From: Escherichia coli | GTDB taxonomy: Bacteria; Pseudomonadota; Gammaproteobacteria; Enterobacterales; Enterobacteriaceae | Length of the DNA: 64,000 bases | Assembly: GCF_003018115.1 (NCBI RefSeq) | Contig: NZ_CP027457.1 | Strand: one strand, 5' to 3' | Shown: piece after piece, positions 53,801 through 59,800 of the stretch | Position numbering within the stretch: the first letter of the stretch is position 1 | Layout: every line of letters starts with the position of its first letter | Position numbers: made by a program

Positions 53801-56800
53801 GGGGCCACGACTTCATTGAAGTATTGCTCCTGAGCCTGCGCTTTTTGTTCTGGTGCTAACGCCTGATACTGTGGAGAGGCGATAACATCTTTCCATGCTT
53901 TAGCCATTAATCACCCCATAGTGAAGAAAAGTTACTGCTGGCTGCTGGCTGTGATACCTGTGCAGGTTGAGATTGCTTCCGCTGAGATTTACCAACATTA
54001 ACGTTATATTGTTGGTTGTAATTGTTGGTGTATTCCTGAATTTCACGAATCGACTGCTGCATAGCCTCCGGGCTTGAATAGTCAACCTGCGGCATCCCCT
54101 GAAAATACATCTTCGCTTCTGCAACGGTGTTAATACCACTGGCACCCATGTCCCTTGCTGCCGCCACACCCTGATTCTGCATTCTGCCCTGAATACGTTG
54201 TGCTGAGTTATATAACTGGCGCTGCTCTTTTCCCGTTAATCGGCTGCGAACATCAGCACCAATTGCTGGATTACCTGCACCGCCTGTCATTCCTGTCATG
54301 AAATCGAGAGCAGAAGCGTCTGCATTTGCGATCGCGTCGATATCCTTCTTCATGGCATAGTTTTGTGCTGATGCAGACGATGTTGCAGGCGCAGCGATTG
54401 AACTGGCAGGGACGCGAACCATATTCCCCTCGTTGTCGATGCCTTCGTAGAACGCATTAGCCCCAGCGCCATGAAGCTTCCCGCCTACCGTTACAGTTCT
54501 GCCATCTGATAACTGAACTGTACGCTCATCATTCCCAGCGATTCCTCTTGTTGACGCTCGCTGCATTGCCAAATCCTGACCTCGTCGCGCAGTAGAAGCA
54601 GATAAGTCCTGACCGCGCATCGTGATGTTCTGGCCTCGTGCTGTTAGCGCCTCGCCAGCCTGATTGCTGCGGATTGTCTCTGCAAGTTTCCCGCGATCAA
54701 TCTCACGACCAGCCATCTTGTCCTGAACATTGAAGTAATCAATTGGACCAAGAGCAGCCATCCCAAGGTGATCAACAAACTCACCAAATCCTGAAGGATT
54801 CTGCTGATACATCTGAGCAACGTTATTAGGGTCAACACCGACGCGCGCCAGCTCATTGGCGTTGTTTTGCAGCCATGATTGCATTGCTTCTGGAGACGAG
54901 GCCGCAAGGCGTGCGCCAGCCGCTAAGGTGCCGATAGAATTGCGCTGGTCTTCATCAATGAATCCCATGCCTTTACGAACGGATTCAATCTGGTCTGGAT
55001 ATTGAGTAGCCAACTGACGCAAAGCACCGCGATCACCAGACGCATAAGCATTAGCGTATGCCTGCTGAAATTCTTTCTGCCGCTGAGCCTGCTTTTCCTG
55101 CTGAAACACCCCCGCAATACCTGAAAGGCCTTGCAAAGCAGTCAGCCCAACATTGTTAGCGCCTGAACGCTCAATATCATTGTTCTGCCTGATAAGCTGA
55201 AGCGTATTGCCGATGTCATTTACGCTCGGAGCGTTTGAGTTGACGCCGCCGATACCAGCCAACAATCCGCCGTTTGTTCCTTGCCAAGTAGCCATGATTA
55301 CCCCTTAAAACAACGAGCCAAGCAATCCGATACCAGCACCAATGCCAGCGCCCCAAGGCGTTGATGTTCCCAAAAGACTGGCAAGACCTGCACCGGCAAT
55401 CGCACCAGACGTGCCACCGCTAATTGCAGTCTGAAGACTTGATGGTTTATTGGCATTAGCAGCGGCAAGTGCTGCACTTTGCTGTGCAATGCTGCTCATG
55501 TTGTTGGCGTATGTCTGCCCAGCGTTTGCCTGACCTTGCAGCGCACCAAGCCCAACGTTTGCCAGATTGTTGTAATTGCTCATCTGGTTTGATAACCACG
55601 ACTGACCGAGAGTCGGAGCAATCGTAGCCAGTTGATTGCTTGTGGCTGTCGAACCAAGTCCGCCAGTCGCCTCCGCAGCAGCAAGACTCTGGTAACGAGC
55701 CTGACCTGCAAGGTCTTTATACTGCTGAGAATTGTAATACTGATTAAGTGCCTGCCCCTGACCTTCTAAACTGGAAAGATTCTGAAGCTGGTTAACATAC
55801 TGCTCCGCAAGCGGCGTGAACGGAGCAAGGTTTTTCATGATCGTCTGCCACTGCTGATTTTGCAGGTCTGCGGCATACTTCTGGGCTTCTGCTGCATACT
55901 TTGCGCTTTTATCAGAGCTACCACCTTTCCCGCCTTTTTCAGGGCACCAAGGTTCCTCGCCGCGCAGTTTTCTGCCCAGCTTAAATGCATATAACATGGC
56001 TATCTCCCGTGATTCAGGAAGTCGATTAGTTCTTCGCGTGTGGCGCTGTAAAAAGTCACGTCATCCACGCCTTTAAAGTATTTCTTGATGGTTCCGACAC
56101 GCTTAAGGCCAATCATTGCGCAGTAAATCTGCCCGTGGCGGAATTTGCGTGCGGCGAACGATGTGACGCACTGAACGGTGGTGTTAGTCAGAATGTATCG
56201 CCAGAAAGCCAGCCCGATTTCCTTGCTGAATCCACGAATCTCTGGCAGGTACATGGCGTGGCAATCGAATGTCAGCGGCTGAATCTCCTGATAGTAAACA
56301 ATGCCGCCGAACTGACCGTGCACGTTCACCTCAAAGTAACGGCAATCAGGTTTGTAGTCGTATCCATCACCGTTGTTGCTCCCGGCAATAATGTCAGGGT
56401 GATTTCCGACTGCTTCTATCAGGTCGATGTTTCGCGTTGGTTTGAACTGAATCATTACTGCTCCGCGATTATCTTGATGGTTGTGGCAGTAAACGCCGCA
56501 CCATTCGACTGAATGGTTAACGTGCTGCCATTTGTGGCAAGAAAGCCGTCTTTATCCACGCTGAAGAACGTAGCTAACAGGATGTTATCGGTCGTTGTCG
56601 CCGAGTTGCGGCTGCTTACCAGTGTGTCAGGAACAGAGCCGGAAAAGGTTAGCTGCATTGACCTGTTGGCTGTTCCGCTGGGCCACGTCCCGACGATCGA
56701 CAGCTTGAAGAACAAGGTTTTGTTCTCGTTGAACACAACCATCTTGTTGTTAACGGTGTCGAAGAATGGTGCCAACGTGCCGGATGACGGCGTGAGCGTT

Positions 56801-59800
56801 TTCAGCAGGCTAACAAGGTTGGTCGGCGCTGTCGGGATGGTTACTGATACGCCAGAGTAAACAACCTCTGACTTCTTGCGAGTAGTGGCATACTCCAGAG
56901 CATCGATGCGCGTTTCATGGTCTGAAACCTGCGATTCCAGCGACTGAACTCTGGTATCAAGCGACGCAATATCGCTTTCATTCTGCGCTATTCGTGTTTC
57001 ATGTTCCTGAAGAGTTGATTCTGCCTGGCTGATTCGCTCCTCATGATTAACAAGCGTTGCTTCCGCAGCAGAAATTCGCTGCTCATGGTCAGCGAGAATC
57101 ACATCCTGCTCATCGTTCCTGACCTGTGCATCATAAGCGCCCTGTCCGGCCTCGTTGGCCTTGTTAGCCACGTTACCAACATCAGTGCCCTGTGCGATAA
57201 CGTAAAGCAGATACGACTGCGAGAAGATATTGCGTGGAAGGACTGATGTGTCGAGCCGTGTAGCCTGAATGATTACCGGCACATTGAGATTCGAATCAGC
57301 CATTACTCAATCCTTATCTGGCAGCCTGACAGAGTGACAGGTGACTTCGTGATAACGCGCAATTTGAAGCCGACATTTTTCCTGATGCGCCCGACTCGCT
57401 TCCACAAAACACGTTTGTCGTAAACGAACGGTTCATTCTGTTCAATCATCTGCTCACGTCCGTAATTTATGCCGTCAGTGGTTGCAGAGAGGAACAGGCG
57501 GTCGGCGTACTGCGCAACGCCAGTTGACGATTCAACCTCAAGGTCGAACACTCTGGCGTTATCCGCTTTGAACAACGGAGTAAACAGCAGGTGTTCCTGT
57601 TGCTTGTCGTACTGGCTGCTGATGTCGAATTGCAGTTTCCCGGTAACAGATTCCAGCTTATCGCCGCACGTTATCTGATTGCCTTCGTAAATGAAGTCGA
57701 TAGCGCGGTACACATCGTCATACAGGCCTGTTTTCAACACACACCATTGCGGACCATTGGCGCTTGAAGATGCGTCGTACACGAGGACGTGACGCGGAAG
57801 GTGGATAATCAGCAACTCATGAGCATCAAATCGCAGAGACTCCATCACGCCATCAGCCAGTTCATCAGCAGTGTAGGAGCGGAGGATTTTCTCAATGCTC
57901 GCGCTGGCGATTGGTGATACCTGACCAGATCCGATGATGTATACAGACGGCGCACCCGTTGCCGGATTGCTGATGAACGCATACGAATCAGCAAACGGCG
58001 TTTTGCAGTAAGTCCCGGCGATGCCTTTTTGCACCATCAGCGATGGCTGGGCGACATACAAAGCAGCACCAACGGTGGTTGCACCAGTCAGGGAAAAATA
58101 CTCAATCGTCGATGAACCAAAGCAGACGATGAAGTCTCGCCATGTCCCGATACCGATAATGCCGTCCGGCTGCGATTCTGCGCGATATTGTGCACTGTAT
58201 CGGTCAGGGTGCGATTCGTCTCCAAGGTCAGTGATAAACCATGAATCAGTGCCGTCTTTTGACCACGCATAACGCCCACGTAAGCGTGTAATGTCGCGGA
58301 CTGAACCTAACTCATACTGCGTAAATCCGCTGTCTGTAGGCCAGTTTGAGACGGTTTTAACCGTACCATCATAGCGATACTCGACCAGTTGACCATTAAC
58401 GCCTACCGCTTGTGATGTCCGACCATGTGCCATTGATACGCGACCACTTCCGGCGACGTCACCGACTTCGCTTTCGCCCTTATACAACTTGCTACCACAC
58501 ACGCGATAAACAGCACTCTGCGCCATGTTGTACTCGACGCCGCGCGATACTCCGTTCACATCAGAACGTTTGGCAATGCCCGGGAATGAGCGAAGATATC
58601 CGCTGCTGTTCAGGATTTCTTTGGGTGTAGCCAGCATATTTACTGGCAGATAGTCGATATAGTCGGCGTTTCGAAAGTCTTTGCCGACACCTTTCATAAG
58701 CGGAAGTTGCTGAATCGGCATTATTCGCTCCCGTTATCGCAAGGTTCCTTTCGGTGGAAGTAATTCCAACCGTTCCACTTCGCCAACTGGTTACCGCTAC
58801 CAACAGGCATACGGTTTGGATAACCGGACTTACATTTAGCGGCTTTTGCTCTGTCCATTGCAGACAGTTTGACGAGTCGCTCTTTCCCGTATCTGGCAGT
58901 GGTTATAAGTTTTGCAGACGCTTCCAGCGCATAATCTGGAGCAATGCGGCAGGCAAGGTTGAAAATGACGGCATTAATAGCGTTATTTGATAAGCCGTGC
59001 TCATCGCCCGGATCCGGAGCAACATCTGCATCAGCAAAAATGTAGCCAACGTTGATACCAGGTGACGCATCACCGCCAAGCCATTCAGCCATCATCATTT
59101 CAAGGTCGTTAACGCCGTCTTCCATAGACTGCGGTTCGACATCGGTTAACGTGGCATTTGATGCCACACCGAGCTTACGTAATGCCGCAAGAACTAAATC
59201 ACCCTTCGTTGTCAGGTTCATCTGCTGCCGCCTTAGGTTTTCGACCAGGCTTTTTACGCTGTTTTTCTTCTGGCTCTGCAATGGCCGGACGCAAACTCAG
59301 GAGTCGTCCAAGAACATCATTTGCTTCATGACCATCCCACTCTTTCCCGAACTCAAGCTCAGTACCTTCAGGAAGGAACTCGATTTCTTCAACAGGTAGG
59401 TGATAAGTGATTTCGCCTTCTGGAGTGGTGATACCAGCAATAATCCAGCCATCCCACTCTTCACCGTCACTGTGTTTGCGAGACCACCACGAAAGCTCAG
59501 CGTAAGCATGCATCAGCGATGAGAAGAGGCGCACTCGGTGAGCGTAAAGCTCGTTAAAAGTGTGATAACCGTCGGACACTTCGCCCATATCAACTGGGGA
59601 AGTTTCACCTACGCCAACACTCCCAATTTGATCACCAACAAGAGGATCATCAGGAACATCGTCAGGGTGCTTATACCAGCCATTTGCTAAGTGCACAGCT
59701 ACATCATCAGGATCAACGGTTTTCGTTTTCAGCTTGCGCCCCCATATTTTGGTATCTCCGCCAGCCTGAAAAATCATTACGCTCATTGGTATCTCCAATA

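Follow-up and report, generated by a model that had tools for sequence, protein, structure and literature searches.

The minus strand of the 64,000-nucleotide stretch of an Escherichia coli chromosome analysed here (the window) contains, at positions 56455-57303, a genuine open reading frame (ATG to TAA, 282 aa), as confirmed by an ORF listing and a sequence check. The coordinates coincide exactly with those proposed in the initial annotation, which had named no strand. The gene, its domains and the neighbouring features are as follows.

56000..56455, minus strand: gene for a DUF2824 protein like P22 gp14 and Sf6 gp10, downstream of the needle gene (PF11039, E=9.6e-54)
56455..57303, minus strand: tail needle gene, the equivalent of Sf6 gene 9 and P22 gene 26 (282 codons and a TAA stop)
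57124..57303, minus strand, codons 1-60: putative N-terminal virion-binding and portal-channel plug domain, common to P22 gp26 (identity to Sf6 gp9 over residues 1-60)
56887..57123, minus strand, codons 61-139: predicted trimeric coiled-coil shaft of heptad repeats, of Sf6/P22 length (aligns with the helical core of P22 gp26)
56458..56886, minus strand, codons 140-282: Sf6-type C-terminal knob (PF16532 and identity to solved knobs)
57303..58721, minus strand: gene for a tail hub (head closure) protein like P22 gp10 and Sf6 gp8, upstream of the needle gene (PF11134 Phage_stabilise, E=1e-298)
62050-63942: 630-aa ORF in the portal gene position

The sequence evidence indicates that this locus is almost certainly a nearly unaltered copy of Sf6 gene 9, encoding the tail needle of an E. 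coli prophage of the P22-like group (Lederbergvirus, Sf6-type); no feature of the sequence speaks against this. The encoded protein and Sf6 gp9 are equal in length, align gap-free and share 278 of 282 residues; the four substitutions, read from Sf6 to the window protein, are R92S, D100E, S113A and S270A. The two genes are 97.1% identical over their full length at the nucleotide level, and 4 of the 25 differences alter the protein. PHROG 1030, 'tail needle knob', matches the protein with E=1.4e-135, while the NCBIfam search of the needle returned only coiled-coil noise (SMC, RNase Y and similar), far under the cut-offs, and that of five neighbour proteins gave no match. The needle is already known; it is an ordinary one of the Sf6 type, with nothing new about it. 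Public databases already list an identical 282-aa sequence, named 'tail needle knob protein', on 376 contigs; of 5426 complete E. coli genomes, 486 carry 80% or more of the gene.

The three parts of the protein differ in how widely they are shared. Residues 1-91 are those of Sf6 gp9 without a difference, and residues 3-64 match an N-terminal fragment of P22 gp26 (8EAP_B, E=1.7e-27), a domain responsible for plugging and virion binding (PMC3741392). The shaft, for which there are weak Pfam matches to coiled-coil families such as Tropomyosin and XhlA, holds all three differences from Sf6 that lie outside the knob (R92S, D100E and S113A). The coiled coil runs to 11 heptads in Sf6 and P22 and to 16 in HS1 (PMC3741392); the window protein does not belong to the long HS1-type class (16 heptads, 317 aa), being 282 aa long and free of gaps against Sf6 gp9. 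Alignment to the long-shaft relatives in phages Gally, 720R6 and JEP4 falls into two pieces, with 952 nt of the record set against 847 nt of the query.

Residues 1-144 align to P22 gp26 (PDB 2POH, 233 aa; E=7.5e-44), as they do to 3C9I (E about 1e-43), which bears out the gp26-like N-terminus and coiled coil described in the initial annotation. Its estimate that the protein is about 50 residues longer than gp26 was also sound, the difference being 49 (282 against 233 aa). The alignments to gp26 end at query residue 144-145, which places the protein outside the class of needles with a P22-type C-terminal tip, and PHROG 1219, 'tail needle protein', covers residues 1-146 only. Because the gp26 alignment stops at about residue 144 of 233, the tip must be regarded as replaced: a P22 tip of about 90 aa has been exchanged for another domain of about 140 aa, and the earlier term 'C-terminal extension', which implies an addition, has to be abandoned.

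That other domain is well characterised. PF16532 Phage_tail_NK ('Sf6-type phage tail needle knob') matches residues 108-282 over model positions 1-175 of 175 with 390.2 bits (E=1.2e-117), the gathering cut-off being 27 bits. The HS1 knob crystallised as PDB 4K6B and solved at 1.1 A (PMC3741392) shows no difference from the window protein over residues 135-282, a stretch that takes in the entire knob (140-282), and a single difference, A270 in place of S270, separates the window knob from that of Sf6 (PDB 3RWN). Knobs of this type fold as a trimeric TNF-like jellyroll, with three L-glutamates and a phosphate as bound ligands (PMC3741392). All the L-glutamate-contact residues listed in that work (E146, K200, S248, D250, L255 and K277 in Sf6 numbering) are kept in the window protein, as is the phosphate triad S231-R232-N233. 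Sequence identity points to the same trimeric TNF-like jellyroll in the window knob, and identity to the studied proteins likewise suggests that the window protein would trimerise, bind these ligands and act as a needle. The Ser/Thr/Asn-rich segment that the initial annotation had placed at the C-terminus is real: the peptide quoted there is present, and these residues make up 35% of positions 141-282 against 21% of positions 1-140.

The same annotation regarded the tip as distinct, and such a tip, uncharacterised and added to a gp26-like needle, might be thought to confer a new host range. The 49 additional residues and a C-terminal part without similarity to gp26 are in keeping with this idea, as is a 2013 survey in which every P22-like phage with an Sf6-type knob infected Escherichia or Shigella, while none of the 48 Salmonella-infecting ones had it (PMC3741392). 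But the knob equals that of HS1 and stands one residue apart from that of Sf6, both of which are solved at atomic resolution, and the domain has a Pfam family of its own. Moreover, giving P22 the knob of Sf6 or HS1 leaves its infection of Salmonella normal and its host specificity unchanged (PMC3741392), and the mutations that expanded the host range of Sf6 in evolution experiments were found in the tailspike (PMC9400499). An uncharacterised tip with a new host range has, in our view, next to no chance of being correct. What survives of the earlier claim is that the tip differs from that of P22; its novelty does not, the C-terminal region being identical to a known, characterised knob (4K6B), within a protein that shares 278 of 282 residues with Sf6 gp9. 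The host-range rationale is also weak, given the unchanged specificity after knob swaps; changes to the tip alter DNA-delivery kinetics (PMC3741392).

The neighbourhood supports the assignment to an Sf6-type needle gene. The gene order is collinear with Sf6 genes 8-9-10; the hub gene stop and the needle ATG share one base (TAATG), as do the needle stop and the ATG of the gp14-like gene, and these one-base overlaps on both flanks also occur in Sf6. The flanks hold gp4-, gp10-, gp14-, gp7-, gp20- and gp16-like genes and a tailspike gene with a P22 head-binding domain; downstream of the gp14-like (DUF2824) gene, the order is gp7-, gp20- and gp16-like genes, then the tailspike. The late operon is unbroken from the portal-position ORF through the scaffold-position ORF, coat, gp4-like, gp10-like, needle, gp14-like, gp7-like, gp20-like and gp16-like genes to the tailspike, with all ORFs intact.

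The window ends, at about position 64000, inside the prophage and does not cover its early half. P22-like phages often use tRNA genes for integration. A tRNA scan found none, and an exact lambda att core was found adjoining ybhB; the reported integration site of phage Kapi1 is argW. A reading of the needle locus as a small P22 remnant was rejected, as the full late operon is present. It is also improbable that the needle is a leftover of a defective P22-like prophage, no longer used in virions: that the window does not reach the early half is in keeping with this, but the late operon is uninterrupted with intact ORFs throughout, and only 4 of the 25 nucleotide differences from Sf6 change the needle protein, as expected under purifying selection.

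In virions of Sf6 and P22, the needle blocks the tail channel and is freed at infection (PMC9728967, PMC3741392, PMC9400499). By analogy with published findings for the Sf6, HS1 and P22 needles, three chains of the window protein would form one needle, whose N-terminal tip would plug the channel of the tail hub and retain the DNA packaged in the head. With a shaft reaching past the tailspikes, the needle would make the virion's first contact with the outer membrane through its knob, which would hold three L-glutamates at the subunit interfaces. Once the tailspikes had digested the O-antigen, the needle would come away, followed by the ejection proteins and the DNA. The tip would modulate how soon DNA delivery begins; swapped into P22, it had no effect on host specificity. 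Changes of the tip affect only the kinetics of DNA delivery, which becomes slower (PMC3741392).

Sf6 requires the secondary receptors OmpA/OmpC, and no part of its tail lies further out than the knob (PMC9728967). Together with a fold like that of the adenovirus and PRD1 fibre knobs, which bind receptors (PMC3741392), this might suggest that the knob is a module for binding the secondary receptors and hence a host-recognition device, while the literature gives it a role only in the timing of DNA delivery. We consider such a module unlikely: P22 with a swapped knob is unimpaired on Salmonella (PMC3741392), a study of Sf6 host range locates the OmpC-binding region at the tailspike's distal tip (PMC9400499), and direct binding of the knob to Omp proteins is not reported in PMC3741392, PMC9728967 or PMC9400499.

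A more speculative proposal is that the combination of an Sf6-length shaft (R92S, D100E, S113A) with the HS1 knob allele (A270) could alter needle stability or the kinetics of DNA ejection and so matter for infection of this E. coli lineage or, more generally, that the knob could use its L-glutamate sites to sense a signal on the host surface; we give it very little credence. The sequence offers no pointer to altered kinetics or to host-signal sensing, and hundreds of E. coli contigs encode the identical protein. The outcome, a correct label (Sf6-type tail needle) for a single gene in a P22-like prophage that is common in E. coli, matters little. For the knob domain there are already a Pfam family and two crystal structures, it has been fitted by cryo-EM in the Sf6 virion, and swap and mutagenesis experiments have been published. 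The function of the knob and of its bound L-glutamate is a question for the whole family, on which the window copy gives no new leverage.

Among known systems, the fibre knobs of adenovirus and PRD1 share with the Sf6-type knob a trimeric TNF-like jellyroll at the distal end of a trimeric fibre (PMC3741392); no sequence relationship between them and the window knob was found, and they are established receptor binders, whereas the Sf6-type knob has no known receptor. The HK620 needle (PDB 5BU5/5BU8/5BVZ) is homologous in its N-terminal domain and shaft: residues 1-145 align with E=4e-42, and the genes are about 90% identical in the first 224 nt, after which the similarity ends. It differs in having a P22-type (subtype A) tip and no knob (PMC3741392). 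P22 gp26 has a homologous plug domain and coiled-coil core and a matching gene position, and the plug-and-needle role assigned to it probably applies to the window protein as well; however, its last approximately 90 residues (about 141-233) cannot be aligned, and the window protein has in their place a knob of about 140 residues with a predicted TNF-like jellyroll (fold: PMC3741392). The HS1 needle, from a prophage of E. coli HS (EcHS_A0316; PDB 4K6B), is 100% identical over residues 135-282, A270 and the ligand residues included, but is 317 aa long with 16 heptads and a shaft only 67% identical to that of Sf6 (PMC3741392), whereas the window protein, at 282 aa, has a short shaft of the Sf6 type and carries D134 at a position that is Ser in HS1. 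In the case of Sf6 gp9 (NP_958185; knob PDB 3RWN), the three-part architecture, the length of 282 aa, the neighbours and the overlaps all match those of the window gene, and besides the four substitutions the difference lies in the host, Shigella flexneri for the former and an E. coli chromosome for the latter.

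The tail needle gene at 56455-57303 (-) is a single ORF of 282 codons with an ATG start and a TAA stop, and its translation ends in the C-terminal peptide given in the initial annotation. Translation of the plus strand over the same interval meets stop codons throughout. The needle gene shares one base with each neighbour, its ATG overlapping the upstream stop codon and its own stop codon the downstream ATG; Sf6 genes 8, 9 and 10 are arranged alike, with one-base overlaps. The gene is part of a P22-like late operon on the minus strand, as assigned with Pfam and PHROGs.

Genes of the late operon and the adjoining prophage end
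59830-61125 (-), coat protein (PF11651)
58721-59281 (-), gp4-like adaptor (PF11650)
57303-58721 (-), gp10-like hub (PF11134, E=1e-298)
56455-57303 (-), tail needle, the gene under study
56000-56455 (-), gp14-like (DUF2824)
55305-55997 (-), gp7-like (PF25688)
53907-55295 (-), gp20-like (PF16928)
51910-53907 (-), gp16-like (phrog_770)
48851-50923 (-), tailspike, 690 aa (P22 head-binding domain)
47692-48756 (-), acyltransferase, 354 aa (PF01757, Acyl_transf_3; PHROG O-acetyltransferase / O-antigen acetylase)

Comparison of the needle protein with all PDB chains gave matches of two classes. Residues 130-282 match the knob, the C-terminal tip domain, of the Sf6 needle ('Gene 9 protein', 3RWN, E=1.3e-90) and of the needle of HS1, a prophage of E. 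coli HS ('HS1 knob domain', 4K6B, E=3.9e-90), whereas residues 1-144 match the needles of P22 (gp26 chains 2POH, 3C9I and others, E about 1e-43) and of HK620 (5BU5). The families divide similarly: PF16532 ('Sf6-type phage tail needle knob') covers residues 108-282, scoring 390 bits (cut-off 27), phrog_1030 ('tail needle knob') matches over the full length (E=1.4e-135), and the match to the P22-type needle family phrog_1219 is confined to residues 1-146. The product was thus rightly called a tail needle. The tip that had been singled out as a distinct domain is nevertheless the textbook Sf6/HS1 knob: over residues 135-282 it does not differ from 4K6B, and its sole difference from 3RWN lies at position 270 (Ser in Sf6, Ala in the window). 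The C-terminal region is therefore a known and already characterised needle knob and not a new domain.

The whole protein is 278/282 identical, gap-free, to Sf6 gp9 taken from NC_005344 (BLASTP), the substitutions being R92S, D100E and S113A in the coiled-coil shaft and S270A in the knob; 25 of the 849 bases of the gene differ, of which only four alter the protein. Sf6-type knobs hold three L-glutamates where their subunits meet, with a phosphate bound at the apex, and the glutamate contacts in Sf6 numbering (E146, K200, S248, D250, L255, K277) (PMC3741392) all occur in the window protein, as does the S231-R232-N233 triad.

The protein is indeed about 50 residues longer than P22 gp26 (282 versus 233 aa), but the proposed extension is a replacement. 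Since the similarity to gp26 ends at about residue 144, a knob of ~140 residues takes the place of the ~90 C-terminal residues of gp26, exactly the tip replacement between needles described by Leavitt et al. in 2013 (PMC3741392). In the window protein, a shaft of the short Sf6 type (11 heptads, 282 aa) carries a knob with the HS1 allele at position 270; HS1 has a longer needle, of 317 aa and 16 heptads (PMC3741392). In phages Gally (OV696608), vB_EcoP-720R6 (ON470605) and JEP4 (MT740315), the needle gene was matched in two pieces spanning 952 nt per 847 nt of query. These ~105 extra bases fit a long-shaft, HS1-like needle of 16 heptads with the same knob, as judged from sequence. The length of the shaft is variable, and the knob nearly invariant.

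Needle and knob are already known and of little interest as such. The exact 282-aa sequence is public from 376 E. coli contigs under the name 'tail needle knob protein', and its 90%-identity cluster has 3620 members. Any match to the gene occurs in 919 of 5426 complete E. coli genomes, and at least 80% of the gene in 486. By 2013, Sf6-type knobs had been found in 69 of 164 P22-like genomes, with a protein divergence of at most 4.9% (PMC3741392).

We infer the mechanism from the literature on near-identical proteins. The needle would be formed by three chains, whose quasi-sixfold N-terminal tips would plug the hexameric tail hub and keep the DNA in (PMC9728967); the shaft would extend beyond the tailspikes and carry the knob at its distal end. 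During infection, the tailspikes would bind and cleave O-antigen, the particle would reorient, and the needle would be lost before ejection proteins and DNA leave (PMC9400499). P22 chimeras with the Sf6 or HS1 knob infect Salmonella normally; mutations in the glutamate site are without visible effect, and several other tip alterations slow K+ release, a proxy for DNA delivery (PMC3741392). On these grounds, the knob is best seen as modulating the kinetics of ejection, and the literature considered does not support the host-range role ascribed to the needle tip. Host-range mutations in Sf6 evolution experiments were located in the tailspike (PMC9400499). The tailspike of the window matches solved structures and Pfam only in its N-terminal head-binding domain (residues ~17-142), and its receptor-binding part of ~550 residues has no PDB sequence match; related tailspikes are present in phages IME10, Dewey and Louie. 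This receptor-binding part is likelier than the needle to determine host range.

To the left of the prophage, ybhB, bioA, bioBFCD and uvrB (~39000-47140) are 99.8% identical to E. coli chromosomes, and the host is therefore E. coli. Just past ybhB, 47230-47244 (-) is an exact copy of the 15-bp att core of phage lambda, GCTTTTTTATACTAA (chance expectation 0). The P22-like prophage therefore seems to sit at or beside lambda attB. E. coli chromosome similarity runs to about 47432-47530, some 190-290 bp past the core, and a tRNA scan found no tRNA genes in the window.

At the prophage end, the gene directly after that of the tailspike encodes the acyltransferase. Sf6 carries an O-antigen-modifying lysogenic-conversion gene, oac, and the acyltransferase is presumably of this kind. 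An ORF of 173 aa, flanked by the gp16-like and tailspike genes, lies on the opposite strand (51298-51819, +); its only match is phrog_6067, of unknown function (E=1.5e-109), with none in Pfam. The equivalent position in P22 is that of the immI/sieA genes. Another ORF, 59199-59966 (-), lies between the coat and gp4-like adaptor genes and has 255 aa as called from a TTG start; its product is probably about 195 aa, because the match to phrog_3769 (function unknown, E=9e-101) begins only at residue 61. These two small ORFs and the tailspike receptor-binding domain are less well characterised than the needle gene. The late-operon region shows a mosaic relationship to many Escherichia P22-like phages, and its gene order is collinear with that of Sf6, whose only gene at the equivalent of 59199-59966 is the small gene 6, of 62 codons with the stop.
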